Origin: Eledone cirrhosa
Lineage: Eukaryota
Direction of reading: 5' to 3'
Length of the DNA: 64,000 nt
Assembly (NCBI GenBank): GCA_964016885.1
Contig: OZ024741.1
Coordinates: 230,640,001 to 230,704,000 of the forward strand
Position 1 is the stretch's first letter. Each line of letters starts with the position of its first letter. The notes under the pieces were generated by a model. The model made no database searches. It saw nothing but the letters and a program-made list of their open reading frames with translations, and had not been told where the DNA came from. The position numbers and the translations under genes are program-made. This document shows, one piece after another, positions 10,864-64,000 of the stretch.

Positions 10864-13800
10864 GTAAGTTTCGTAGGGTTTATTTATGCCATTCATATAT
10901 GAACAAATAATAACAACTGTCATATAGAGATATATATCCATCTATCTATCTAGGATAGTGGACGCGTACCAATCTCCCTGGTAAGTTTTTTGCATGCAAA
11001 CAACGGAATTACTTTGTTAAAAAGTGTATCATTTTATAGATTGACACCCCGTCTGAATTGTCAGCGGGTGCATCATCTCATTTTTGGCCCCATCTCTCCC
11101 CAGAGGCGAAAGTTTAATTTTAAAAAGTTTCAGAATTGTTTTGAAAATCACAGCATAGCAATGAGTTATAGAGAACAAACGCTGACTTTGCCTACCACCA
11201 CAAGTGGAAGTGGGAGTATGAAGTTATATGCTGGCAGACTGCCTACTGCTATAAACGTCGCTATAGCAACCAGTGTTGACGGCAACAACTTAGATAGCTT
11301 TTGTGAAGAAAACATTGCTACATTAAATACACCAAGTAACGAACAAAAGAAACACCACACTACAACTAAACTAATAAACTCCACCACCATAAAGGAAACA
11401 ACAATTGAGGACAACAGCAACCATAAAAAAATCTTTCGCTCAGACAGCAGTGAGAAAGCAGAATTTCACCCACTTGGACATTTCTAATGCGAAAGAAATG
11501 ATCAATGGAGGGAAGAAATACATCATTTTTGAAGAAAAGAGGGGGGGGGGGAGAATTGCACCTCCCCCACAAATTAGGGCTGACCCAATTCGCAAGACTG
11601 TGATTTTTCGCATAATCGCAAACAATAAAAAAAGCCGGCATTCCTTACTCGAGGCGAGATTGAAATTGTCTTGAAGGAAGCTATGCTGGACATTGATTTC
11701 ATCCAAAGGGCCAAACAATATGGGAGCATTTCGGTGCTTTTCAAAAGCAAGACCCTTGCACAAAAATACTCGGTGACCCCGATCACCTCTGCTAAATACA
11801 GCTTTTTCCCTACATATATGGGATAAAGGACACACAAATAAACGCCACAAACATACCACCAAATATTTATATCTGATGGATTCTGGCAGGGTTCTTGGAG
11901 CAGGAAGAAGACACGATCCTTTCCATAAGAAAATCCACAAGAAACACCTGGAATGGCATAAGTTGGGAAATTCTGGTCCACATGAGACCAGAAAGAATTT
12001 CCAAAATACCAGAAGACAACACCAGTGCCAGTAGACAACACCAACTACATACACATTTCGACAGAAGGAGGAGGCAACATTGTTTTAAATGCTTTAGCAC
12101 ATCACATTTAAAGGCCTTCTGTCCCCTGTTACGAATAAACACCAACAAAAATGTAGTTCTAGCAACACAACACCAAAACCAAAACAACAACAACACACAA
12201 AACAAGCAAACACAAAAACCAACAACTGCACAACCACAAACAGCAGAAAAAACAAACAATTCCCCTGAAAAACACAGTCCCACCCCTCCCACTCCATCCA
12301 ACACTACTACACACACACCCCATCACCACACAGCATACCCCTCCCACACACACCTGATGCCGACTCATCAGACGAGGCTACCTCTCCATCTCCAAGCGAG
12401 GATGAAGGAGAACATCAGAAATAAAAAAAAACAAAAGAAAATACATCGCAAAACTACAAAAACACCAATTACCAACACAAACAACAACACAAACCCCACC
12501 ACAATAACACCAAAACAAACACCAACACCACCCCAAACACAAAAGCTCACCATCAAAAGAAAATTACAAAACGAACAACAAACAAAAACAACACAACACA
12601 AATCCAAACAACAGTACGCATACATCAACACAAAAAAAAACCCCTTAAGGAGGTCATCTCCAAAGACGTCGAAGTCGAAACCGAGGGGAAGACTTACACT
12701 AAAACAGAGACTGCACGACACCTGAAAATGATAAAGGTTCCAATAGAAACCTACAACAGACTGAAAGATGAATTTTCTCAGGATGTTGGAAACTCTTGTC
12801 AAAAACCCATCAACCCATCAACAGAGTCCCATTAAAATGTTTCCCCACCCGACCCAACACCCCAACAACACTCAATTGGAGATTGAACAACCCAATCTCG
12901 AGGAAACGAAAAGGTAAGTGCATCTTTTCGTCTTTTCGCCAACTCTTCTCCACCAACAAGCCAAATTTACGAGTTGAAGTGTGAATATGCGTGGCCTAGG
13001 GATGCCCTGGAAACAGGACCAACTTTTAAATGAACTTAGGTCACATGGTATGGAAGTGTTAGCCATCATCAAGTCCAGGATCCACAAAAAGCAACAACTA
13101 ACCCGCATCTTTGATGACTTTGAGATCTACGCATCTCTCTGTCAGCCAAGAGGTGGAGGGGGAGTGGCTGTTTTGTTGCGGAAAAATCTGGACCTCGAAA
13201 TACAGCAAATATACTTGGTCCCGGAGGGTAGACTGGTGGTGTTAGACGTGAACAGTGTTGAAAGTGGAGCCTTCAGACTGGTGGCCGTTTATGACCCGAC
13301 TGGGACATCGCGACCAGACTTCTTCAAGCGTCTAGAATCATTTCTGGGAACGTCTCATCCGTGGTTTTAGAGGGGAGAATGGAATGGTATCCTGGATGCA
13401 CGTTGGGACTATGTAGGAATATGTTTCAATAGAGATGGGTGCAACAACCTCAAAAATGTAATCGCACAATTCCAACTAGCGAATAGGTATTGACAAGATT
13501 TCCAAACTGCACCACAGTGGACATGGACAAATCGCAGTGGGGCATCTAGATCATATCTTGACAGATTCATAATTAGAGAGAGAGACAAGAAAATGTTAAG
13601 CTATCCACAAATATACATGGTTGCCTATTCGGACCACAAACTAGTCACTTGCATAGTCAACCATGATAGAACGCGTAGACAGGGACCCGGATACTGGAAG
13701 CTGAACATGTCGTTACCGACACGTAAAGCCTATAGCAGACGGATAAGTAGTTTAGTTAAGCACCAGTTGATGGGAGCCATCATCAACAATAGGTGGTGGT

Positions 13801-16487
13801 GCTCTCTCAAGATAACAATTAGATTAGAATCCATAGCTTTTAGCAAAGAATTAGCTTTAGAAAAAGATAACCAGAGAGAGAACTGGTAGCCAAAGTAGAG
13901 GAGGCGCTTAGGAGTGGCAACGCCGCTAGGGTGCTAGCAACGAGAACGCCACTGGACCAGTTCTTCGATGCGAAACACGAAGGCTGCGTTGTCAGGAGTA
14001 GATCAAGTGATCTAGGAAACGACAGAGCAAAAGCTGCTAGCTGGGCCCGAGTGGCAGAAGCGAAAAGTGGCAACAAGTCCACGATTCGGTCTTTGAAAGA
14101 CCAAAACGGACGCGTGCTACTTGATACCAAGCAGATGTGTACGGCCTTTCAGCAGCACTTTGCGCAACTGTTCGGGCAGAGCGGTGCACCGAACGAGGCA
14201 ATGGACTTCGGTTCATACATCGACGGCCTACCGCGACTCTTGAGCATGGACGCGAGGTTCTGCGAAAGACCGATCACACCCGCTGAGATACAGGATGCTC
14301 TAGGCCGCTGCGGGAAACGCAAATCACCCGGTCTAGATGATCTACCATATGAGCTTTACATAGGCATGCCGGACTTGTTCTCTGGCGTCCTCAAAGCCGT
14401 CTACTGCAACTGGCAGCAGACCGGGAGAATTCATAGTTCTGTAGGAAGGGGCGTAGTCACGCTGATCAGGAAAGACGAGAGGAAAAGTGACGAAATAAGC
14501 AATATCAGGCCCATAACTCTCCTAAACACAGAGTTAAAGATTTTGGCCAAGGTGTTAGCAACGAGGCTGGCGCTTGTCGTCGAGAACCTGGTAGGAAAAG
14601 CACAAACGTGTGCAATCCCAACCAGACCCAAACACGACAACCTCCACCTCATGCGATACATCATAGAGAGGGTGGAGTCTGAACCCCGCTTTGGTGGGCT
14701 CTGATCAATTTAGATCAGTCTAAGGCAATTTGATAGGGTCAACCATCAATACTTGGAAGCGATGCTCAAGGCGGCCGGTTTCGGACTCGTCTTCAGAGGC
14801 TGGATCACAGCCATGCACACGAACATCTGCTCGACAGTCAAGGTGAACGGCTACCTATCGGCGCCGTTCCAAATCACGCGTTTCAGCCGACAGGGATGCC
14901 CTCTCTCCTCCATTCTGTACGTGCTGACTCTCGAGTCACTGCTGCGGAAGCTGTAGCATTTGCAGGGAATCCCTTTGGAACCGGGTCTGTGAAAGCGGCG
15001 TCGGCTTATGCCGACCATGTATCAATAATGGTGTCGAAAACCTCGAAAATCGGACGTACGGGAACTTACTGCAGGAATACGAAAGGCTTATATGAGCAAA
15101 GCTGAACCCGGACAAGTCGGTGGGCTTGAAGCTCGGCACCTGGAGAGGCAAGCCCATGCCGCCCGACAGCGTTGTGTGGCGCTGGATGGAAGGACCGGTG
15201 AAATTGCTGGTTCGGTCCGGACCTCCAGGTGTAGAAAAACTGAAACGAGGTCATGACCAAGGTATTTGCGCTCATCCAGAATTGGGCCGAGTGAAAACTA
15301 TCCTTGAAAGGTCGAGCGGAGGTAGCGAACACTTTCATAGTGTCCGTCATCTACTACCGCTTGACCGTCGTGTCTTGTCCCCGTGAAAACCTCACCCAAA
15401 TGGAACGCATGCTCTTCCAATTCTTTGGAAGAAGCAGGCTCCGCTGATGAGGAGATCCGTCTGCTGCCAGCATCCTTCCAGCGGAGGGCTGGGAATGCCG
15501 TGGCTGAGGATGCGCCAACACCCGCTGAGGCTACGGCATCTCCGGATATTCCTCACCGACCATCCGGTGTGGGCCCCGTTTGTGACACAAGGCTTTCCAC
15601 AACTTGTCTATCTGACGGAGCTGCAGTCCTGGGTCAAGCAGAGACAGAATAAAATGGGCGCCTGGCACATCGAATGAGATCAGGCGCTCACAGTCCTCTG
15701 TCAAGCGGGCACAGCAATCATTGGAGATTCACTTCATCATTCTATAGAGGGCTAGTACGGTACAAGTGCGGCGATGTTCTTGGAGAGACTCTGGGCGTCG
15801 AAGAACACGAGCTAACCAGTCTGTTCAGTAGGACTTTCCGCCCAGGACCTATGGACAACTTCCAAAAGTCCCTGGCCTGGTAGTGCTACCGAGGAGCTCT
15901 ACCAGTCCGCGACAATATCTACAGGCACGGATCCTTCAAAGAGGACGTGTCCAAGATGCGAGCGGGACATTGAAACCGTCCTGCACGCAATTGTACACTG
16001 CCCGGGCGTAACCAGCCTGTGGAACTGCGCAGAACAACTACTGTCGCGTGTGGGAAAAATCCAGTTGATAGCCGATCAAACCACCACCAACATTTAAAAA
16101 CGAAGGAGAGGCGGTTTTCCTCTGTATGGTGGCTATGGTGAAAGAGGTAATATGGTGGACAACGTTCTGAGGACTGAGGACAGATGCCTTTCTCTCCGGA
16201 TAACAGCTCATTCCCTTCTTTAGATACAACTTCAGAAGGAGAATCAGAGTGGAGAGAGAGGTACTGCACCCCAGTAAATTTACTGAACGGTGGGTGAATG
16301 TGGCGAGAATGGCCCGAGTGACCTCTAGTTTGAGGAAGAGAGCGAAAAGAAGAAAGGAGCACTTGCAAAACATGCTCCTGGAGTTGAGGGTCATTCTATC
16401 TACGGGGTATAAAACAACCCATTTGTAACGCCTTCCGCTATTGGGGATTTCAATTGTTAAATTATTATGTTAAATATTTTTACATGA

Positions 16488-17492
16488 ATATAAGTATGTA
16501 TACGTACATACATATATGTATACAGGCGTACAGTAGTATGTATATATATATACATACATGCACATATATATATGTACGTATGGATTTACCGAACATTTAT
16601 TATAATGCTCGGTGTGTTTGTAAACAAACATCCCGAATTAAGACGTACAGTGTCTAGCAACCATCGTTGCTCATTTGTTCAACCCTGACAAAGGAACGCT
16701 GTACTAGTTTCAAGCTTATTAGCTATGGTTAGCAACGTATACCTTCCTGCCAGATGATTGAACGTCTGAAAGTATATACTTTCCTTATGCATATTAACGG
16801 CTGAGCAGCCTAATTTGCATATCGAGTGAGTTAATTGGCCGGGGTGCCGAAAACGATAAACGGAAAAAATGAAACGAAATTTCATTTCTCACTCTTAAAT
16901 ATAAGTATGTATACGTACATACATATATGTATACAGACGTACAGTAGTATGTATATATATATATACATACATGCACACATATATATATGTACGTATGGAT
17001 TCACCGAACATTTATTATAATGCTCGGTTTGTTTGTAAACAAACATCCCGAATTAAGCCGTACAGTGTCTAGCAACCATCGGCCGATTAACTCACTCGAT
17101 ATGCAAATCAGGCTGCTCAGCCATTAATATGCATAAGGAAAGTATATACTTTCAGACGTTCAATCATCTGGCAGGAAGGTATACGTTGCTGACGATAGCT
17201 AATAAGCTTGAAACTAGTACAGCGTTCCTTTGTCAGGGTTGAACAAATGAGCAACGATGGTTGCTAGACACTGTACGGCTTAATTCGGGATGTTTGTTTA
17301 CAAACAAACCGAGCATTATAATAAATGTTCGGCGAATCCATACGTACATATATATATGTGTGCATGTATGTATATATATATATACATACTACTGTACGTC
17401 TGTATACATATATGTATGTACGTGTACATACTTATATTTAAGTAACAGCCGTACTAAGAGTGATGAATGAAATTTCGTTTCATTTTTCCGTT
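16488..17492. mobile_element. Non-coding ~430-bp-unit HHR element (retrozyme-like), ~1.4 units plus ~1 inverted unit, inserted in the LINE 3' UTR
   Basis: Unit start AATATAAGTATG at 16487 and 16898; inversion at ~17081; candidate TSD TATTTTTACA(T/A)GA at 16475-16487 / 17493-17505. Same family as 54907-56248. Confidence 0.88.
17158..17245 (+). ncRNA. Type I hammerhead ribozyme motif of the 430-bp family
   Basis: ACGTTG|CTGACGA(17189-17195)|T-AGCT-AATA-AGCT-T|GAAA(17210-17213)|CTAG|TA|CAGCGT. Stem I extends via AAGG/CCTT, CTGGCA/TGTCAG and GTTCAATC/GGTTGAAC. Confidence 0.78.
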
Positions 17493-17599
17493 TATTTTTA
17501 CAAGATTGTCTGTAAAATCTCCGCCATATGCCTGTGTATTGTCCCATATTCTTGTGAAACCTTGTGGCAAATAAAGGAATCAATCTATCTATCTATTTA

Positions 17600-20250
17600 T
17601 CTGGCCCCAACCCTGAACTATACTGACGACTGTATCAGTCCCACGACACTCACCCGGCAACAGAACGACTCATTTCTCTCTTTACTCTTCTCCTTTCATC
17701 TCTCCCTCCACTTCTCCACTTCCATCTCCACCACCTCCGTCCACTTCTTGGAAATCTCCGTCGCCATTGACCTCTCGCTCCGCCCACTCATCATCTCCGC
17801 CTTTTTCAAACCTTCTGGCTCCCACTCCTACCTCAACTTTACCTTCTCCCACTCCACTCACACCAAACACTCCATTTCCAACTCCTAACTTCTCCAAATC
17901 CACTGCCTTTGCAGCCGAGGTGCAGAATTAGAAACCCAGGCATTTACTCTAGTTCACCATTTCACTCGGAAAGGTTACCTTCTCCCTGTTCCACGACAAC
18001 CTCTCCCGCGCTCGCACCGTACACCACACCACCACCATAAACCCACGCCCTCTCGCACACCGACCGACCGTCACCCTTTCCCCCATCACCATTTCCCCGC
18101 CACCTAACCCTCCAAAGCTCCATCCTACGACTTTTCCGGCACCTCCAATCAGATTCCTCCACCTCCCCCTTCTTCCCACTCCCATCCCTCCTTCAAGCGC
18201 GTACGCAACCTCCGCAACATCCTCGTCCGCAGCTCGCTACCCCCATCCATCTTCCTTCCTTCGGGTCCCTCACCTGCTCCCGACCCCTTTGCCACACATG
18301 CCCTCACATCACCAACAACACTACCTTCCAGGTGCCCAAGGTCCACTCCCTCCATGCCTGGCGCACTCTTTTGCTGCACCTCCTCCAGCCTTGCCTATGG
18401 ACTCCGCTGCATGTAGTCCGGTGTGATCTATGTCGGACAGACTGGACGCCGTTTGGCCGACCGGTTCGCCAAACAGCTCCTCGATATCCGCCTCGGCTCC
18501 CGTTCCCCCCATTGTTCGACACTTCTGCTCAGCCAGTCTCACAATCTGACTACCTGTGGCTCTGCAACCCCGGATTCTCAACTGAGGGCCGAGCAGCGGA
18601 CGATTTTCTGACTTCAGATCTGGACCACCACCGGTTTAAACACTCCACCCTTCATCTCTTAGCCACCCCTACAACCTCCCTTCCCGACTGATACCACTAA
18701 TCCACTAACCCCCTCCCACACACACACATATCCTACCCCACCCTTGGTTAAGTCCAATCTATCCGTACACTACACAAAACATACACGCACTTATACCCTG
18801 AAACACACACACACCAGTATATACGCTTACATACATCAAAACAACGAGAGAGAGCGTCTGTCCGACACACACCGACAATATCTACTCGTATGACCACTAC
18901 GATATATACACACACGAACAGAGACAGCTATACACACATATATATATATACACACGTAACTAACAGTTTCAACCGCTCACACACATCTGTCTGTATACAC
19001 AGCCGCTTACTCCTCACACACACTTACAGAATCCACATCGCCTTTTCTCTCACACGTGTCTTAGTATCACTACCTCCCCCCTTCTCTCTCACCCACTTGT
19101 CAGTTGTCACCTTCGTCTTATACACTTTGTCCTTTTACACTTTTGACTAAACCACTTCTTTCGGTTGCGCGCGCCACCCCGGCATTTCACTTCTTTCTAT
19201 CTTCAATTTCTCTCTTGGATTTGACCACACGCCGTTAACTTCTTCATCTATCTCTGGATTTTTACGATCCACACATATAAAGGAACATAGACACACACAA
19301 ACATGTACACCATTTCCAGACATACGCAACTACGCTCCTTACACTAACCCACAACACGCATAAACATACCAGGCATGTGTCAGTACTCGTTATTTAACCT
19401 ATGTTCAAATGAGTTCAAATCCCGCCGAGGTTGACTTTGCCTTTCATCCTTACGGGGTCGATAAAATAAAGTACCAGTAATGCACTGGGTAATTGCTGGC
19501 CTTGTGCCTAAAGTAGAAACAGTTATTTAACCTACGTTCTCATACACATTCACTTCATTTCAACCACACGTACTTACATCCAAACACACACACACACATC
19601 TAAACATACACTCACACTTTACCCTACACCGCCTCCAGATTCGACAGGTTCATATCTCGTCCTTCTATCCTGAGTCCTCCATCTACACACACACACGTAT
19701 ACACACCAACACACACACAGGAACATATACACGCACAGGCATATACACTATTCCCCCACACACAGTCTTTTCAGAACAAAGATTCACATACACTCGCTTC
19801 TTTTCAGACTCAAATACTTACATCTACACACACACTCACATCTACACATACACACACACCTTAACATCCGCCATCCCCTCCTGGACTCCGAGTATTTTGC
19901 TTCCCCCTCCAACCTCTCTCACCTTCTCCCCAACAACCCACCCACATACACACTACCACAACCTTGTCATCTCAACACCACCCATCTCGGACTTATACAC
20001 CCCTACCCCCTTTATCTTAACATTTTTTTAATTTTTACATAAAATTTTTTTTTATTTATATCTATTTTTTTTTATTTTTCTCTTCATGTGTGTTCTTTTC
20101 TTTGTAACTACCCTCCTTAAAACCTCCCTTACTCCCTCTCAAAGTTCCTGTTCTGCCCCTATCCGAACTTTCCTGATGAAAGAATTATGTCTGAAAATTT
20201 GAAACTTCCTCAACTTCCAAGTGTGAACCTAATATAACTGTACAATTGCC
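17600..20250 (+). mobile_element. 5'-truncated Penelope-like element (RT 3' half + GIY-YIG endonuclease, degenerate)
   Basis: LNYTDDC (YxDD), VHFLEISV, FFKPSGSHSYLNF, then IYVGQTGRRLADRF (GIY-YIG). Long CA-rich 3' region ends in a decayed CTGATGA..GAAA at ~20173-20205. Confidence 0.8.
19408..19521 (+). mobile_element. 5'-truncated SINE with target-site duplication
   Basis: Starts at the B box GAGTTCAAATCCC. Flanked by GTTATTTAACCTA(T/C)GTTC on both sides. Confidence 0.88.
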
Positions 20251-51800: not shown

Positions 51801-54545
51801 GAAAAGGGAAATTAGAGTAGTATCGATAAGGTTTAGCAAAGGAGTAGTGATAGAGGAAAATAGAGTAGAAAGAGAGCTAGTTAGAAAGCTAGAAGAGGCG
51901 TAGAATAGGCATCGCAACCGATATGCTTGCGGCGAAATTGGTACTTCAACGCAAAACACGCAGGCTGCGGTGTCAGCGCTAGAGCGCTTGCTCTGAGACA
52001 CGAGGGGACAACAGCCGTCCAATGGTCCCAGATGGTAGAGGCGCGACGTGGCAACAAAGTCACAATTCAGTCTTTGCCTGACCAAAACGGGCGCACGTTA
52101 CTTGAACCCGAACAGATGTGTGAGGCTTTTCAGCAGCACTTTGTTCAACTGTTTGGGAGCAGCGGCGGGCCGCATCGGTGTAAGAACTTCAGTGCATACC
52201 TCTAAGGACTGCTGCAGCTCTCGCCGACCACGGCACAGTATTGTGAAAAGCCGATCATAGCAAATCAAATATGGCAAGCGATGTCATGCTGGATAAGTGG
52301 TAAATGACCAGGTTTAGATGGTCGGCCCTTACAGCTTTATGCGTACGTGAGAGGCTTGTTCGGCGACCTCTTGGCAGATGTATATTGCAACTGGCAGCAG
52401 AACGGGAGCATTTCCAGTCTTATGAGCCGGCGAGCAGTGGCGCTGTTGAGAAAAGATCCGAAAAAGGGGACGTTAGGGACAACTTCGGGCCCATAACTTT
52501 GCTAAACGCAGATTTCAATATTTTGGCCAAGGTATTAGCAACGAGATTGATGTTTGTCATCGGTAAACTGGTGGGAGAGATGCAGACATGTGCCATTCCA
52601 GACAGATCTATCCACGACAACATCCGCGTTATGCGATAGATAATAGAGAGGGTTGTTAAGGCACCTGGCACGGGTGGACCTCTGATCAATTTGGATCAAT
52701 TTTAGGCATTTGATAGGGTCGAGCATCGGTACCTGGTTGCGGTCCTTGAGGCGGCCGGTTTCGGCCCTGTTTTCAGGGGTTGGATCACTGCGATGCACAG
52801 AGACATCTGCTCAGTTATGAGGGTGAACGGTCACCTGTCACAGCCGTTCAGCATCATGCGCTCAGTCCGCCAGGGTTGAACCCTCTCGTCTCTCATGTAT
52901 GTATTGGATAACGAGCCATTACTGCACACATTGGAGGCAATGAGAGGCGTCCCACGCGAACTGGGATGTGGGAGATCCGTATCGGCTTACGCCAACGACG
53001 TCACCGTGGTGGTGTCAAGCACCCGACATGTCCAGTGGCTCGCCACCACTGTCAAGTTATATGAAGCAGTGACAGGAGCTAAGTTAACCACGAAAAGTTG
53101 GTGGGCTTTCAGTCGGCACCTGGGGAGGCAAGTCCATGCCGACCCGTAGCGTCATGGGGGGATGGACTGAAGGACCGGTTAAATTGCTCGGGGTCTGTTT
53201 CGGTCTGGACCAGGTGGAGAAAAAATGGAGCGGGGTTGACGAGCAGGGTGGCCTCTCTCACCCAGATATGGGCGCAGAGGAAGCTATTCCTGAAAGGTCG
53301 GGCGTAGGTGGCGAACGCGTACATCGCGTCCGTCATCCACTACCGTCTGACAGTCGTGCCTTGTCCTAACACTCGCCTGACTGTGTTGGAGCGTTTGCCC
53401 TTTCGCTTTTTGTGGAAGGTACGCATTCCAATGGTCAGGTGGTCCGTTTTATGCCAACACCCACCACGTAGAGGGTTGAGCATGTTGTGACTGATGATAC
53501 GCAAACATGCGCACAGGCTACGGCATCTCCACCTCTTACTCAACGGTGATCAGGTGGGGTTACCATTTGCTAGACACGTATTTTCCCAGCTCGACTCCTT
53601 GACAGAGCTGCTGTCATGAGTCAAGCGAAGACCGAGCGGGAGTGCTTGGAAACTGCAATGTCTTCAGGCGTTTACAAACCTCGACCAATCGCGCAATGCG
53701 ATCGGTGGAAACTCCACATTGGCGTTCTACAGAGGGCTAGTGGAGGGAAAGATGACGACGTCGATGGGGAGACTCCGATCGACGAAAATCAACTAGCCAA
53801 TCTCTTCGGGAGAACATTCGAGCCGTGGCCCATGGACAACCAATAATCCCTGGCCTGGGAATGCTACCGAGGAGCTTTGCCAGTTCGGGATAAAATCTAC
53901 AGCCATGAAAGTGACGTCAGCCAAGCCTGTCCGAGATGCGCGCAGGTCGACGAAACCGACCTCCACGCACTCGTCCAGTTTTCGACCATTGCTGACTTGT
54001 GTGTTTATGTCGAACATCTACTGTCGCGTGTAGGGTGGATCCGGCTATCAGCTGAGTCCATCGTGAGGATTGCCCCGCCATCTTCATTTAGCCAGGAAGG
54101 GCAGCCAGTTTTTATCGGCCTGACGGCCATGGCCAAAGAGGTCATGCGGTGGACGCGTTTGAAAGGGGTGAAGACGAGCAATTACCTCTTCGGTAGTGCC
54201 CTGATTAACTTTTCAAATTTCATTAGAAAAGGAAAATCAGGGTAGAGAGGGAAGTGATCTCTTCCCAGCAATTTGTTGAAAGATGGGTGAGAGAAGCAAG
54301 CATGGCCCGAGTGAATGGGCCTGTTCCGAGTATTCGCCTGTAAATTGAAGGTGGAAAACTGGGAGAGGGCACTTGCCCTGGTGGTCAGGGTCACTGTGAC
54401 TATTTAATGAGTTTTCTCCACGTGTGTCCCTCGGAAATCTCCCCGCTATTGGGGAATTTTGCTTTGTTTCTATTTGGTCATTTTCTTTTTTTTTTTTTAC
54501 ACGCAGACATTTCCATTTGTACCGTCCTATACCGTCCTGTGCTGT
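48900..54545 (+). mobile_element. Second L1/Tx1-clade LINE, degenerate (ORF1 with CCHC knuckle; ORF2 from ~50972)
   Basis: CYLCESKGHVRVFCP; LRIGSINVRG, AISET, LVAVYAP, YLDRV, ADHKFV, YWKLN, PITLLNADFNILAKVL, AYANDV, CPRC..H. Shares the 3' motif CCGCTATTGGGGA with the first LINE. 5' boundary approximate. Confidence 0.9.
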
Positions 54546-54804: not shown

Positions 54805-54906
<102 letters not shown>

Positions 54907-56248
54907 GTATGCATACGTACATACATACATGTATACAGACGTACAGTAGTATGTATATATATATACATACATGCACACACACACATATATATGTACGTAT
55001 GGATTTACCGAACATTTATTATAATGCTCGGTGTGTTTTTAAACAAACATTCCGAATTAAGCCGTAGTGTCTAGCAACCATCGTTGCTCGTTTGTTCAAC
55101 ACTAACAAAGGAACGATGTACTAGTTTCAAACTTATTAGCTATCGGCAGCACCGTATACCTTCCTGCGAGATGATTGAACGTCTGAAAGTATATACTTTC
55201 CTAATGCATATTAACGGCTGAGCAGCCTAATTTGCATATCGAGTGAGTTAATCGGCCGGGCGCACCGAAAACGATAAATGGAAAAAATGAAACGAAATTT
55301 CATTTCTCACTCTTAGTACGGCTATTACTTAAATATAAGTATGTATAGTTACATACATATATGTATACAGACGTACAGTAGTATATATATATATATATAT
55401 ATACATACATGCACACACATATATATATGTACGTATGGATTTACCGAACATTTATTATAATGCTCGGTTTGGTTGTAAACAAACATCCCGAATTAAGCCG
55501 TACATCGTTGCCCTTTTGTTCAACACCGCTTATTAGTACATCGTTCCTTTGTCAGTGTTGAACAAAAGGGCAACAATGGTTGCTAAACACTGTACGGCTT
55601 AATTCGGGATGTTTGTTTACAAACAAACCGAGCATCATAATAAATGTTCGGTAAATCCATACGTACATATATATATATATGTGTGCATATATATATATAT
55701 ATACATACTACTGTACGTATGTATACATATATGTATGTACGTATACATACTTATGTTTAAGTAACAGCCGTACCAAGAGTGAGAAATGATATTTCGTTTC
55801 ATTTTTTCCATTTATCGTTTTCGGTGCGCCCGGCCGATTAACTCTACTCGATATGCAAATTAGGCTGCTCAGCCGTTAATATGCATAAAGAAAGTATGTA
55901 CTTTCAGACGTTCAATCATCTGGCAGGAAGGTATACGGTGCTGACGATAGCTAATAAGCTTGAAACTAGTACATCGTTCCTTTGTCAGTGTTGAACAAAA
56001 GGGCAACGATAGTTGCTAAACACTGTACGGCTTAATTAGGGATGTTGTTTACAAACAAACCGAGCATTATAATAAATGTTCGGTAAACCCATACGTACAT
56101 ATATATATGTGTGCATGTATGTACATATATATATATACATACTACTGTACGTCTGTATACATATATGTATGTACGTATACATACTTATATTTATGTAACA
56201 GTCGTACCAAGAGTGAGAAATGAAATATCGTTTCATTTCTTCCATTTA
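54907..56248. mobile_element. Second insertion of the ~430-bp HHR element (~1.4 units plus ~1.6 inverted units) between (TA)n tracts
   Basis: ACGTACAGTAGT at 54939 and ~55370; inversion junction ~55504-55535; homologous to 16488-17492. Confidence 0.9.
55910..55996 (+). ncRNA. Type I HHR motif of the 430-bp family
   Basis: ACGGTG|CTGACGA(55941-55947)|TAGCTAATAAGCTT|GAAA|CTAG|TA(55970-55971)|CATCGT. Confidence 0.78.
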
Positions 56249-56600
56249 TATATATATATATATATATTAAAATAACAGATTAAAGTTTAAGAAAAGAATC
56301 GCTGCTTTCACCCTTAACGGGATCTTCTGAAACTAACAAAGTCAATCTGTAAACGCAGAACTGGATATTTCAAAAAAACGTTGCAACCGGAGGAAGACAG
56401 GAAGACGATACTTTGGTTCGTGGTAACGTTCGCTGGCAAAGAACGGGAAAAAACGAATAATACGTCATTAATAGGAGCGATGAAAAACAATTACGCGCAA
56501 AGACAAAACCACGTTTTGCTCTACGGTTCTTATATATTTGATATATATTTTCCTTATCGAGCCCTCTTTGGATTTTAGTCTTCAATTTTATTATTATTAC

Positions 56601-57486: not shown

Positions 57487-60088
57487 GTATATTACAAGCT
57501 TACTATGTATAAACTTTATAATTATATTAATTATTTATTTATTCTTCTTTTCCTGATGACCAAGTGTTAAAGCTGGTGTATTAGTGCACTAACCCCTATG
57601 ATTCTTACACTTAATTCAGCCTCCTGAAAATGTCGTCAGGATACTTTTGCCTTTGAACCTGCTTAAGTGCAGCTTCACTCACATGTAGAATACATTGTGG
57701 AAGCTTTCATGAAAGGACGACTGTCTCGGTGTTAGTAGAAACTATTTTAACACCTTCCGTGCAGACAATGAATAGAATTCTTTTCAGGTCATATCAGAAA
57801 TCACCTTCCAACGAATGAAGTAGAACCATAAACTCTACAAACTCCAGTCGACTGTTCCTTCACCCACCACTTTGATACAATTTTCAACCCGACTGTGTAT
57901 ATCAGTTCTGTTCATGAATGAACTCATATTGAATGGTTTTGACTTAGTATCATTTATCCGAACACAGAAACTGGGACATTCATCGAAACTTCGACAATTC
58001 CTTTGCAACGCTGTGTTATGCTTTTTCGAGATCAACGAAAAAAGCTTATAACACTTGGTAATGTTGCCACGATTTCACGAAGACCTGTGAATATCTGTTT
58101 TGCTCTGAAGGCAGTGTCCATGATTTGAATCACACTGTTCGTCAATTATCTTGGACTGGATAACACAGCGTTGACCAGTTATAAGAGGACATTTGCATAC
58201 AGTTAGTAAAATTCGTGTTTTTCATGAAATAAGGGCTTCATTTGAAAACAAAATTGCGTGGAATTTTATTAGACTCTATTTAATGAATCCGTCGTTTGCA
58301 ATCGATGACGGCTTCAATACAGTTTTTGTAACTTTGGCATGCACGAATCATATGATCCCTAGTTTTGCGATTTTGATAGATATGACGGACTACAGAGATT
58401 GTATAGTGTTATGGGGCGTTAATTTACTTACCTCTCATCCTATATATGGTATTCCAAAGGATTTAAGATTAGGGTACATACTTTTTCTGATTATTCATTC
58501 TTGAGACATCTATCTTCATATGAAACGGCTGAGAGACTTGTGTGTAGATATACGACGTTCCTTTGCTTACGCGTTTTTGCGTTTGTTCCAAGATCTCACA
58601 ACATTCTCCAACTCATTCTTGTATTTCGCAACATTGAACCTTAACTCCTTTGGAAAGAAGTAAGGAGGTGTGACATCTCCCTCGCCTCTATGTCTCTCAG
58701 AAACAACAGGGTTGCTGGAAACCTTCTGCACTTGACTGTTTGAAGACCTTTATCCAACCTGTCCATCTATCTCTCATTGACATATTGGTCGTCATTAAAG
58801 ATATTCTCAGAGAAAAATCTAAGATTTCAGGGTATGGATGTTTCGACTTGATAAATAAGCGCTGATCAGATTGTTTTGTTTTTCAAGTCATGCATTTGGA
58901 TTTCCGTTTCACATAGAAAATAGGTCATCATTCACAATTCTATCGCTACTTGTCGTGGAAGCCTATACTATTTAGCAACAGCACTAATTCATATTTTTGG
59001 TTATTTTCGTTAAGTTACTACTTCTTTCGTACAGATCTGTGTGTTCTAGTTGTACTGGGATACGTAGCCGGCATTTTCTGTTTGGCTATCCTGAAGAACC
59101 CTGAGAGAAGTGGTGACAGTACGCACCCTTGACAGATTCCGAAAACCAAACTATCCAGACTATAATTATGAGGTGGGATGTGTAGGTGCAAAATCTAAAT
59201 ATATGTGCTCGTGAGTTGCTGCCATCATGGTTACACGAGTTGTTATTATAATGAAATATTGTTCAATCTGACTCTCCTTCTATATATTTATAATTCGTTT
59301 TTGAATTTGTTTTGCGAGATTTCTTATCTGAAAACGTGTGTTTAATCATGGTCTTTGTTTTGTGTATCTGTCCTTTGTCCTGTCCTACATCATTTTGACA
59401 CAACACAAAAACAAGATGGTGCAAGACAGAACAAAGAAGAGACACACAAAAGAAAAAGCTAGTTATTGAAGGGGTCACAGAAGGTTTGAAATATATAAAC
59501 AATATTCCGGTTATCGAACCAATCACGCAGCCGGAAATTTATAATAAATTGAAGTGAAAACCAACAGGTGCGTGTGTTTATATTGGCAACATAACCCCCC
59601 CCCCCCCCCCCAGTATAACAATATATACATATATATATTTATAAATGTAGTCTGAATTTTTCGAATATTAATAATAATATTCTATTCGTTTGCAATTACG
59701 CAAACAACCTCCTTTAAAGCCATGTCAGTAGAATGACACCTTCATTCTTACTCTTGTGTTTGCTGAAAACATAACTGCAGACACTAATGTTCTCTGTGAT
59801 TAATCTTCATCAATACAGTATAATGCTTACCTGCCAACTGTCAGAGCTAGTTTTAAAATATATATTTTATTTTATTAAATGTATATATATTTATATATAT
59901 ATATATATAGTATAACTGAACAAAAATGAAAAACGAACACAGACATATACATGTATGCGTTCAAATCGTAATGGACCAGAAACGTTAAGGTGAAAAAATA
60001 CTAACTACAGACAATAGGGTTTGCTTGATTCAATTTAAGAATAAATCAAGGAAAATAAAATACAAATCAGTATTGTCGTAACTACCCA

Positions 60089-60171
60089 TCACCCGGACGG
60101 TTTTTGATGGAACCGTTTCGCAATATTAATTGTGAAGAGGTACATCAAATGCTTAGCTCATCAGCGGGTGA
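60089..60171 (-). ncRNA. Type I hammerhead ribozyme motif with canonical core
   Basis: Minus: TCACCCG|CTGATGA|GC..GC|GAAA|CGGTT-ccatcaaa-AACCG|TC|CGGGTGA; 7-bp perfect stem I. Confidence 0.88.
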
Positions 60172-60610
60172 AGAATTAGTATCAGATCACTTCTAAATAA
60201 AATAAAGATCTGGATAGTGTGTGTATATGTAACGCACATGGTTTCCGAACTTAGCGCGCCGCGCAGACTCACGTCACTAAAAATAGCAGCATGGTCTATG
60301 CGACATTTGAATTAGCTCTACGAATTAACGGAGCCGAATATATCAAAAGCATGTATTGAGTTAGAAACTCAAAATAGTCTCATTACAGTAAAATTAGCTC
60401 TAGGAAAAAGGTTTTTCCGAGCCGTATAGTATAACTGAACAAAAAAGAAAAACGAACACAGACATATACATGTATACGTTCAAATCGTAATGGTCCAGAA
60501 ACGCTAAGGTGAAAAAAATAATGTAACTACAGACAATAGGGTTTGCTAGACTCAATTTAAGAATAAATCAAGAAAAATAAATACAAACCAGTATTGTGGT
60601 AACTACCCAA

Positions 60611-60691
60611 CACCCGGACGGTTTTTGATGGAACCGTTTCGCAATATTAATTGTGAAGAGGTATATCAAATTCTTAGCTCATCAGCGGGTG
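60611..60691 (-). ncRNA. Type I hammerhead ribozyme motif with canonical core (tandem copy)
   Basis: Same core and stems, 521 nt from the first copy. Confidence 0.88.
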
Positions 60692-60999
60692 AAGAATTAG
60701 AAACCCTATTGTCTGTAGTTAGTATTTCTTTTTCACCTTAGCATTTCTGGTCCATTATGATTTGAACGCATAATGGTAAATGTCTGTGTTCGTTTTTCTT
60801 TTTTGGTCAGTTATAATATACGGCTCGGAAAAACCTTTTTCCTAGAGCTAATTTTACTGTAATGAGACTATTTTGAGTGTCTAAGTTATCGTTATAGGTA
60901 ATCCAGTTAGAGGTTGTGAATACTCTGTATTGTGGATAGTTTTAACCTACGACTTTGTTTGACTCAACAAGATGTTTCCATAGTTAGGTAGCGAGTTCG

Positions 61000-63900
61000 C
61001 GACAATTCCTATGCAGGTTATACTTGGAGTGATAATATTGAAAGATTGAAGAATACCATGGTTGGCTGTAAAACAAGGGGCTTTATTTCAAGTATTAACA
61101 ATTGTTTCATTGATCAGGTGAGTCTAAAAACAGCTAATCACTCGAAGTTGCGTCACTCGACCTTAAATACAGTGTTTACTTCTGATCAAATCCTCAGAAT
61201 ACTAGAGAACTCATATATGGCAATAGTATATATAGATACAGCGTAGAATCAAAACAATAATATCAATAATAAAATATAATAATAAAGAGGTTTAGTGTTC
61301 TGCCAGACCTAGAATTATTTACTTGAGTAAATATCACCGGAATCTAACTACTAAATTTTATACAGAAAAGGATAAGATATATTTACAAAACACCATATCG
61401 AGTACAAGTCTTCATTTTATTGTAACTCCGTTATAATTGTTGTACACAAATATCCTCGTACATATTTAGGTATAGTCCAAGCCCGTGATTAACATGTTCA
61501 TCTTCAGTGTTGTCGGCTCGAAGGAAAAGCGCCAAAGAGAGAAAGAGCTGGCTGTGTTGCCGCTATTTATAACATCTTTCCGGAAGTTGCAAAAGAGGGT
61601 TCTAGACTTTCGACGGGAAGTAACTCTAACTACTTCCCTGTCTAGAGAGCGCTATAATACTCTCCTCTCAGACGAGAAGTCGAATGACCAAATGAAATCA
61701 CTGTAGCGAGAACATGAGGAGCAAAGCACCAGGTACAAGAACATGAATGAATAAAACATGAGCAAGGAAAACAAAAGGTACATAAATTACAATGGTTTGT
61801 AACAGAGGCAATGTAGGAAAATAAACATGCAGAAAAATGTAACTGGAACAATACAATTCGAAGCAGTACAAGGGAGCAAGGAAAATAGTGCTCAAAATAA
61901 GTTGAACATTTTTCAAAGTCAAACAGTTAATGCTACTAGGGGTTAGACGAATATTGTTTTTGAGAGTTTCCGTGGCCATATTACTGTCCTGCCACTTCGT
62001 GTGACATATGGTTGTGTGGTATGTGGTGTTTGCGGTGGAGGTGAAGGTGTTTGTGTGGGAGTGTATGTGCAGGGTATGCCAGACACTGATGCGAGACTTT
62101 CAGAGAAAGCCTTCTTTGCTCTGTCAACGGATATTACCTCTTTTCGACCACTGACAGCCACTGTAAAGTGTTTTGGTGTGTGCGAACGTACACGGAGAGG
62201 TCCATTGTAGGGTGTCGTAAGAGGTCCCTTGACGGAATCATTCGGTATAAAAATGTGTGTCCATGTAGAGATGTCCGATGGGACAGCAGAAGAAACAGAT
62301 TGGTCACGAGGGTTCATTGGTGGACGATCCGAGAAATACGAACGAATCCTGGTGACATATGATGCTGGGTCAAGATGTGATGAATCCACTGGTGCTTGCA
62401 TGTCCAGGAAGAGACAATGTGGTACCATAAAGAAGTTCAACACAAGAAAAACCTAAATCTGTCTTAATGGCAGAACGAAAACCAAGAAGCACGATTGGCA
62501 AAAATTCGGCCCAACGTTGCGGATCAGGAGTAGCGCGAAGTGCAGATTTCAACTGTCTATGAAACCTCTCGACCATTCCACTGGAGGCTGGATGCTAGCT
62601 GGTCGTATGAATGTGATGAGCACCCAAGAGTCGTGATATTTCACGAAATAAGGAAGCTTCAAATTGGCGTCCACGATCAGTAGTTATTTTAGTAGGAACA
62701 CCAAAGCGAGCAATCCAATTGGAAATGAAAGCTCGGGCAACGGACTCTGCTGTTATGTCCACTAAGTGTATGGCTTCAGGTCACCGAGAGAAACGATCGA
62801 TACAAGTCAATATGTATGTGAATCCACGACTAACGGGACATGGACCAACAATATCCATGTGTATATAACGGAAACGTGCGTCTGGTGGGCTGAATTTCCC
62901 AAGAGGGGCGCGGATATGCTGATGAATCTTAGAGCGCTGACACTTCAAGCAAGAACGTGCCCAGCCGGTGATTAAACGACGCATATTAGGCCAAAAGAAT
63001 CGAGCCGTAACAGCTATGCCAGGATGTGACAAGGGGAAGTGCATTAAAAACGGTACGCTGATGACAATCTGGAACAAGTGGTCTGGGTGAGCCAGTAGAA
63101 ACATCGCAGAGAATCTTTCCTTCAGAAGATGGAAGAGGTAAATATTCCAATTTGCAGCAGGAGAACTGGTCAAAGGAAATGTCCAGCGAATCCAAAGTAG
63201 GTTGGTCAGTTGCAATGGCAACTAAATCGATATGTTCAGGAGACGCAAGAGAACACACAGAAAGTCGAGATAATGCCTTCGCTGGTATGTTGGCAGCTCC
63301 AGCTATATGACGAATGTCACTGGTGTACTGGGAGATGAAATCCAAATGTCTGTATGTCCTTGGAGAGTATCTATCGGACTTGGTTTGAAGAGAGAATGTG
63401 AGTGGTTTATGGTCTGTGAATACCGTGAACTCCCGACCTTCAAGAAGATGGTGGAAGTGTCTCACACCAAGATAAACTGCTAAAAGCTCTCTGTCAAAAG
63501 TACTGTAACGTTGCTCTGCTGGTTTTAGTTGACGTGAGAAAAACGCCAGTGGTTGAACTTGGTGATCGATTACATGATGCAAAACTGCGCCAACAGCACG
63601 ATCAGATGCATCAACAAATAAGGAAAGCCTCGCATTTGCAACAGGATGGGCAAGGAAAGAAACTTTAGCTAGCTCAGACTTGATGGATTTAAAGGACTGC
63701 AATGCATCGGCAGAAAGTGAAATAGGAGCATCTTTCTTTTTTGCCGCCTTTAACAATTGTGTCAATGGGAACAACTTGTCCGCACAGTTAGGAATGAGGC
63801 GACGATAAAAGTTAATTAATCCCAAGAAATGACGTAATTGTTTCAGGGATGTGGGTGGTGCGATATGCTGAATCGCTTCTACCTTAGATGGCAAAGGTCG

Positions 63901-64000
63901 TATGCCTTCTGAATCTATAAGATGTCCAAGGAATTCCAGTGAATCTGTATCAAACGCACATTTAGCTGGGTTGATTCTGACTTGGTACGATTGGAAACGT
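61000..64000 (-). mobile_element. Ty3/Gypsy LTR retrotransposon 3' portion (RT end, RNase H, integrase, probable 3' LTR); runs off the window
   Basis: LRHFLGLINFYRR, FVDASDRAVGAVL, PLAFFSR, YSTFDRELLAVY, FTDHKPL; integrase HMDIVGP, CIDRFSR, MVERFHRQLKSAL, PYNGP. Purine tract GAGAGGAGAG (-) at ~61660-61669 before a probable LTR with TATAAA (-) at ~61570. Outer LTR end uncertain. Confidence 0.9.

Follow-up and report, generated by a model that had tools for sequence, protein, structure and literature searches.

Two fixed, complementary ends of a 430-nt hammerhead retrozyme point to probable one-event insertion by a Penelope-like enzyme

The stretch of DNA analysed here (64,000 nt; hereafter the window) carries at 16488-17492 a hammerhead-bearing element whose copies lie both in tandem and in inverted orientation within a LINE, which raises the question of whether such a structure can be the product of a single insertion and, if so, which enzyme made it. 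An earlier note on this DNA had described a hammerhead ribozyme (HHR) element of about 430 bp nested in a LINE 3′ UTR, with a candidate 13-bp target-site duplication (TSD), and had attributed the whole structure to one retrotransposition event. We propose, with a probability of roughly three in four, that the element is a non-LTR retrozyme which was inserted in one event by the borrowed reverse transcriptase (RT)-endonuclease of a Penelope-like element (PLE), priming both nicked strands at two fixed starts. The most informative feature, which was absent from the earlier note, is the presence of two fixed, complementary ends.

The insert is a 1,005-bp head-to-head structure built from three copies of a 430-nt non-coding unit (u1 = 17080; Table 1). 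With 37% GC and a longest frame of 76 aa the unit is protein-free; the RT plus GIY-YIG ORF of an autonomous PLE is absent from it, and no LTR pair was seen in the 430-nt family. At u228, a polymorphism shared within the family, the outer left unit does not match the two inner copies. Since the minus-strand hammerhead copy has two core changes and the third, partial unit copy has no HHR, the insert holds one intact ribozyme and therefore cannot form a cis double hammerhead. The nested ~430-bp element was thus confirmed by unit mapping together with the empty sites given below, and the tandem-plus-inverted layout reported before stands with the correction that only one HHR is intact and that the HHR copies lie on opposite strands.

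Table 1. Coordinates of features in the window (u, position in the 430-nt unit)
Feature	Position	Strand	Remarks
Host LINE decayed ORF2, RT plus zf-RVT	14723..16326	+	by tblastn against L217, which holds a more intact relative
Host ORF2 end with 3′ UTR up to the insertion	16327..16487	+	continues at 17506 onward in 27/29 other copies
Left TSD copy TATTTTTACATGA	16475..16487	+	
Left arm	17081 down to 16488	-	u176-430, then u1-358
Left arm, outer unit u1-358	16488..16841	-	stops at fixed end A (short end, without tail); 95% identity to right arm
Broken-core hammerhead copy	16680..16766	-	CTAACCA at 16732-16726
Octamer ATTTGCAT, u22-29	16813..16820	+	second copy 17101-17108
Left arm, inner partial unit u176-430	16842..17081	-	16-bp deletion in tail; 99% identity to right arm over 188 nt
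Head-to-head junction	17080..17081	.	5′-to-5′ meeting of arms; 2-nt microhomology (CG)
Right arm u1-416	17080..17495	+	stops at fixed end B (long end, tail present)
Intact type I hammerhead motif	17158..17244	+	core 17189-17219; predicted cut after 17219
Self-complementary TA/CA-rich tract	17337..17424	+	belongs to the unit
55-nt tail separating ends A and B	17441..17495	+	hairpin predicted at 17466-17484
Right TSD copy TATTTTTACAAGA	17493..17505	+	one mismatch to left copy
Remaining host 3′ UTR, AATAAA, (ATCT)n tail	17506..17603	+	
Second insert of the 430-nt family	54898..56249	.	head-to-head in (TA)n; end A left, end B right
Insert of the 521-nt HHR family, head-to-head	59907..60885		HHR cores 60685 and 60164 on minus strand

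The insertion site was placed in the 3′ UTR of the host because the LINE ends in AATAAA and (ATCT)n near 17600. The frame of the relative used for the assignment of the host ORF2 matches RVT_1, with zf-RVT just below the cut-off, and we take the host LINE to be Tx1-like. A further remnant of its ORF2 family is located at 52673-54340. Directly behind the host tail, positions 17619-18600 hold a decayed PLE fragment with 27% identity to the protein of L215 over the RT region and with GIY-YIG-like words recognised by eye, which is probably unrelated to the insert. LTR-retroelement-like sequence was seen by eye on the minus strand at 60870-64000.

Within the 64 kb the 13-mer pattern has just two matches, at 16475 and 17493. 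For the check proposed earlier, an alignment with other LINE copies, 30 loci were fetched by a search with the left flank, of which 29 were other copies of the host LINE. In 27 of these 29 (26 by script and L054 by alignment) the left flank runs straight into the right flank with a single 13-mer; the exceptions are L047, with an unrelated insert of ~49 nt, and L042, which is interrupted, and two 13-mers were found in none of the 29. The duplication is therefore considered real. The base that differs between its two copies is a CpG site, which reads ACG in 20 of the 29 host copies. Because 1 nt on the left and 3 nt on the right also match the element ends, 13 bp is the maximum length of the TSD within a range of 9-13 bp. 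Moreover, repeats of 12-16 bp flank five further inverted inserts in unique flanks (14 bp in L018 and L026, 13 bp in L068, 12 bp in L175 and 13-16 bp in L019), which makes six such inserts in all. The element ends of the family overlap the TSD by 1-5 nt; the TSD lengths with these overlaps (12-16) and without them (6-9) scatter alike, so that neither set points to exact nick positions. The empty sites, the five further flanked inserts and the end rule of the whole family support the view of the earlier note that one retrotransposition event made the structure.

The family is large. Across the genome of 3.0 Gb a 30-mer from the ribozyme was matched exactly at 10,891 sites, corresponding to at least 10,891 ribozyme copies, and a looser pattern that includes sister subfamilies about 82% alike gave 28,823 matches. 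Tandem arrays of five HHR copies ~420 nt apart occur as well on contig C1 (see also L151/L152), and the targets are (TA)n and AT-rich DNA. The unit is also found in pieces in contigs from four public runs, which bear the labels of four organisms; none of these contigs spans the locus. All over the family the 3′ ends fall at two fixed sites 55 nt apart, end A at u357-361 and end B at u412-416; exact junctions to TA numbered 2,210 for end A and 2,858 for end B, and reversed controls gave 0.

Both ends could be classed in 57 head-to-head inserts from 153 loci; 56 of these combine A with B, one is A+A and none is B+B (p about 4e-16 against 50%). The sole A+A insert, L014, bears a fold-back. In this tally the duplicate L119/L120 was entered twice, L164, L178 and L074 are short or rearranged, three inserts that are A+B by eye (L019, L068 and the one at 54898-56249) were missed by the strict A motif, and inverted inserts with an unclassed end, e.g. 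L005, L012, L102 and L121, were left out. A first automatic tally of 52 A+B and 6 A+A was dropped, as its loose A motif had matched the self-complementary tract. By coordinates alone, C1 from 0 to 117 Mb holds 100 B ends and 96 A ends, and each of the 16 pairs that stand head-to-head no more than 2.2 kb apart is A+B, in a set which contains one duplicate and overlaps the 153 loci. Tail-to-tail palindromes at element ends were observed in L014, L201 and L247/L248, the latter with mirrored flanks; they may be fold-back products or assembly artefacts.

The same rule was found in an unrelated HHR family of 521 nt with ends at u276 and u363, 87 nt apart, and 1,089 candidates in the genome: in 30 loci, all 12 distinct inverted inserts with both ends pair the two kinds, and in two of these the long end is irregular. 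The member of this family in the window (59907-60885) does not reach the long end on its right side, where the neighbouring element may have cut it off. Additionally, two of two inverted inserts of an autonomous Neptune-type PLE family carry the tail at one end only.

In its unit the 430-nt family resembles the metazoan non-LTR retrozymes, which are described as non-coding low-GC units of 150-450 nt with a type I HHR, tandem copies, a TSD of more than 4 bp and co-occurrence with PLEs (PMC7229834; 10.64898/2026.07.22.740005). Unit size, GC content, one HHR per unit, tandems, thousands of loci and TSD are alike, and the available text of both papers describes neither head-to-head inserts nor fixed ends. 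Mobilisation of animal retrozymes by PLEs has there been argued so far from co-occurrence and phylogeny.

In its inserts the family resembles the endonuclease-bearing (EN+) PLEs. Their inserts are reported to have one inverted arm, a tail on one of the arms and a TSD of 8-10 bp enclosing the whole (PMC3846280); how PLEs come to make tandem and inverted inserts has been called an unsettled question (PMC8557442). According to the accessible parts of these two papers, both groups share an inverted 5′-truncated arm, partial tandems, an enclosing TSD, a tail at one end and AT-rich or (TA)n targets, and mobilisation in trans by terminal sequence alone, as described for EN+ PLEs, may also apply to the 430-nt family. 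The tail is optional or often one-sided in EN+ PLEs and one-sided in 56 of 57 inserts here. In contrast to EN+ PLEs, the 430-nt unit has no ORF, its tail measures 55 nt instead of 30-40, and its TSDs reach 12-16 bp instead of 8-10. [quoted passage not shown] Two start sites bounding the tail and the extension of both strands may likewise be read from the sequence of the 430-nt family. However, the enzyme uses the same starts on both strands and primes without homology in vitro, whereas in the 430-nt family each arm uses one site and overlaps the target by 1-5 nt, and these two properties (as given in the available text of PMC11167929) are counted against the PLE reading. The assignment to PLE machinery was made because the footprint as a whole, with inverted arm, one-sided tail, TSD and two internal starts, matches the published one. 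The insert-making architecture itself is thus already known for PLEs, and what is added here is the near-strict pairing of start sites, its presence in two unrelated families and its occurrence in retrozymes.

Candidate enzymes are encoded in the same genome, where several PLE families have RT, cysteine linker and GIY-YIG domains and are of the Neptune type by the linker described in PMC8557442. Some of their frames are long and open (844-1096 aa from stop to stop), and at least one family ends in (TA)n tracts. It counts against the reading of a borrowed PLE enzyme that no sequence common to the unit and an autonomous PLE was found in 40 PLE loci, a small part of the 10,597 GIY-YIG candidates, the only contacts being one separate nested insert and one 21-nt match at chance level, and that no PLE frame was detected in 60 loci picked for a variant tail or for HHR context. 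Under the proposed mechanism, a PLE protein, most likely from these Neptune-type families, would act in trans on the unit RNA. Both strands of AT-rich DNA would be nicked ~9-13 nt apart, and one cDNA would be primed from each nick, one at each fixed RNA start site, by an enzyme presumably working as a dimer or a two-site complex bound at the tail. The two cDNAs, copied from a circle or an uncut multimer, would then probably be joined 5′-to-5′ by microhomology repair. The ribozyme, weak as a monomer, may cut tandem transcripts as a dimer and would be dispensable for the insertion.

Evidence on the template came from the arms of 51 inserts. Of the 51 arms of each kind, 44 A arms and 29 B arms cross the predicted cut site, with at least one such arm in 48 of the inserts; 30 A arms and 16 B arms are longer than one unit; and none of 104 5′ breakpoints falls at the ribozyme cut (u138-144), i.e. 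there is no pile-up. Arms that run through the cut site, together with the lack of breakpoints there, point to a circle or an uncut multimer as the template and not to a cut linear monomer. When the two arms of an insert were compared at 30 diagnostic sites outside CpG, 42 of 560 comparisons (7.5%) showed a difference, versus 15.7% in random pairs, and adjacent units within one arm differ at 4-6% of the sites.

These figures bear on the strongest competing explanation, which keeps the same PLE machinery and assumes two separate RNA-protein complexes, each serving one strand with its own RNA, so that the A+B pairing comes from an asymmetric assembly on the DNA. It would account for the discordant arm haplotypes of L111, L021 and L076, for the mismatches found in all but 9 of the 25 inserts with 8 or more diagnostic sites, and for arm lengths that are uncorrelated (r = -0.09). 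On the other hand, the two arms of an insert resemble each other about twice as closely as random pairs do, rare haplotypes occur on both arms in five inserts (L161, L154, L001, L004 and L019), and two free RNAs would give no obvious reason for the strict use of A and B. We consider this explanation possible but doubtful. The discordant haplotypes and the u228 difference imply that not all inserts can be derived from one monomeric circle. As judged from the haplotypes, one shared RNA appears the better fit for most inserts, and later gene conversion could also have produced the similarity of the arms.

An inversion by self-priming or fold-back on an antisense template, in which the second arm is copied from the first, has been proposed for PLEs (PMC3846280) and would suit the high self-pairing of the unit, a few palindromic junctions and the fold-back in L014. 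The 51 junctions comprise 22 with an overlap of 1-8 nt, 5 blunt ones, 16 with extra bases and 8 with a longer overlap. Their two 5′ breakpoints lie within 20 nt of each other in only 7 of 51 cases, mostly inside the self-complementary tract, compared with 4.9 expected by chance; this argues against fold-back, as breakpoints are no closer than chance. The outer ends, moreover, lie at fixed and different sites, and we regard such an origin of the inversion as improbable.

Similarly improbable is the view that the unit is a mere pLTR of an undetected autonomous PLE and that the inserts are its 5′-truncated fragments. The end structure equals that of a PLE, and Xenopus retrozymes are reported to resemble pLTRs (10.64898/2026.07.22.740005), so that an origin of the unit from a pLTR is possible. 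Against the inserts being PLE fragments stand the head-to-tail units without an ORF and the small number of family loci with a PLE protein match (5 of 153), all of them outside the family hits and none having DNA in common with the unit.

Twin priming of the L1 type by LINE machinery is a further candidate, as are two separate insertions or a rearrangement after insertion, the 13-mers then being chance matches or part of the host. These readings could draw on the head-to-head geometry, which resembles that of twin priming, on the LINE host and on the one-base difference of the 13-mers, but are in the main refuted and very improbable, given the single 13-mer in host copies, the CpG nature of the differing base, the coverage of the same sequence by both arms, the lack of a poly(A) or host-like 3′ tail, and 56 of 57 A+B inserts, which chance cannot give.

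More widely, Penelope integration might be an obligately asymmetric two-ended reaction. A single tail element would then position the two RT active sites such that each nicked target strand is begun at a fixed site of its own on one shared RNA; for this wider proposal we see the odds as evenly balanced. If it holds, this one step would suffice to explain why an arm is inverted, why the tail is one-sided and how the TSD arises, with no need for self-priming on an antisense template. Retrozymes, each family of which offers thousands of readable inserts, would then be direct in vivo evidence for PLE proteins moving hammerhead RNAs. A strict pairing of two start sites was not found stated in the openly available main texts on PLE ends or on octopus/cephalopod hammerheads. 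A 430-nt RNA with two mapped starts, a near-strict A+B rule and candidate enzymes in the same genome offers a compact test substrate for both questions.

The hammerhead call rests on motif, fold and covariation, as Rfam does not detect the motif: at the gathering score there was no match of any kind in the window, and at E<=5 there was no hammerhead among 91 sub-threshold matches, which are mostly miRNA models on the TA-rich tract. Landmarks of the intact HHR are CTGACGA at 17189, U10.1 and U11.1 at 17196/17209, GAAA at 17210 and ACTAGT at 17213-17218. They fold into a stem I whose proximal part measures 6 bp before a long extension, a stem II of 4 bp with a closing U.U, and an ACUAGU stem III, the latter consisting of one base pair plus a palindromic loop. 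In the fetched loci, overlapping ones included, 194 HHR copies were collected, with an intact core in 159, U.U in 189 and ACTAGT in 179. Two pairs show compensatory exchanges among 133 distinct sequences: u107-143 changes from U-G to G-U in 9, and u86-158 is C-G in 20 and A-U in 21, with a C-U mismatch in 86. The plus-strand HHR of the insert at 54898-56249 has its stem I pair in the G-U version.

For the monomer, predicted fold energies were -27.0 kcal/mol with the core trapped by the palindrome, -17.7 kcal/mol for the active fold and -23.1 kcal/mol when stem III is left open; the 6-bp helix of the dimer by itself was predicted at -4.8 kcal/mol. Because the palindrome is predicted to trap the monomer core, dimer-dependent cleavage of the unit HHR is plausible, and the activity may be low even in the dimer. 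The long stem I, the ACUAGU stem III and the U.U reported for this HHR are all present; 'unusual', as the U.U had been called, does not apply, given that the axolotl HHR_Amex2 has a U.U base (PMC7229834). A one-pair palindromic stem III is described for axolotl HHR_Amex1, and U.U together with a palindromic stem III was also seen in the HHR-like motifs that two of the autonomous PLE families in the same genome carry. Both are known features, and the 430-nt HHR differs from the axolotl retrozymes in combining the two weak ones. The proposed likeness to minimal PLE hammerheads, described with a helix I of 4-5 bp, a helix II of 7-8 bp and G10.1-C11.1 (PMC4209133), was not borne out, as the helices here are of canonical retrozyme size. 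According to the available text of that paper and the predictions for the 430-nt HHR, both are of type I with a palindromic stem III, a dimer model and low activity, whereas the latter is without G10.1-C11.1 and sits in a tandem non-coding unit.

HHR-like motifs were also seen in the PLEs themselves. The Neptune-type family L181-L208 carries, ~430 nt after the endonuclease frame, a motif with a U3-A8 core swap, a U.U stem II and a palindromic ACCGGU, and it has an internal TA run at the short end and a hairpin like that of the retrozyme tail. Another PLE family has in the 3′ regions of L214, L218, L221 and L222 a terminal repeat with GAAACCGGTA after a core without CUGA, which is possibly a degenerate or atypical hammerhead.

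The octamer pointed out near 16813 is present and is kept in 145 of 179 copies, given here as a raw count. Its role as a promoter clue is unsupported: no octamer lies within 400 bp upstream of five U2 genes from three clusters of the same genome, the best match of the unit to the U2 region from -85 to -30 is 13/18 in low-complexity sequence, and an snRNA-type promoter element was rejected for U2 on this basis. Two conserved blocks, one at about -57 to -30 and one near -260, are common to the five U2 genes, and the U2 snRNA genes (L223-L236) are organised in tandem arrays, with a period of ~2.2 kb on C3.
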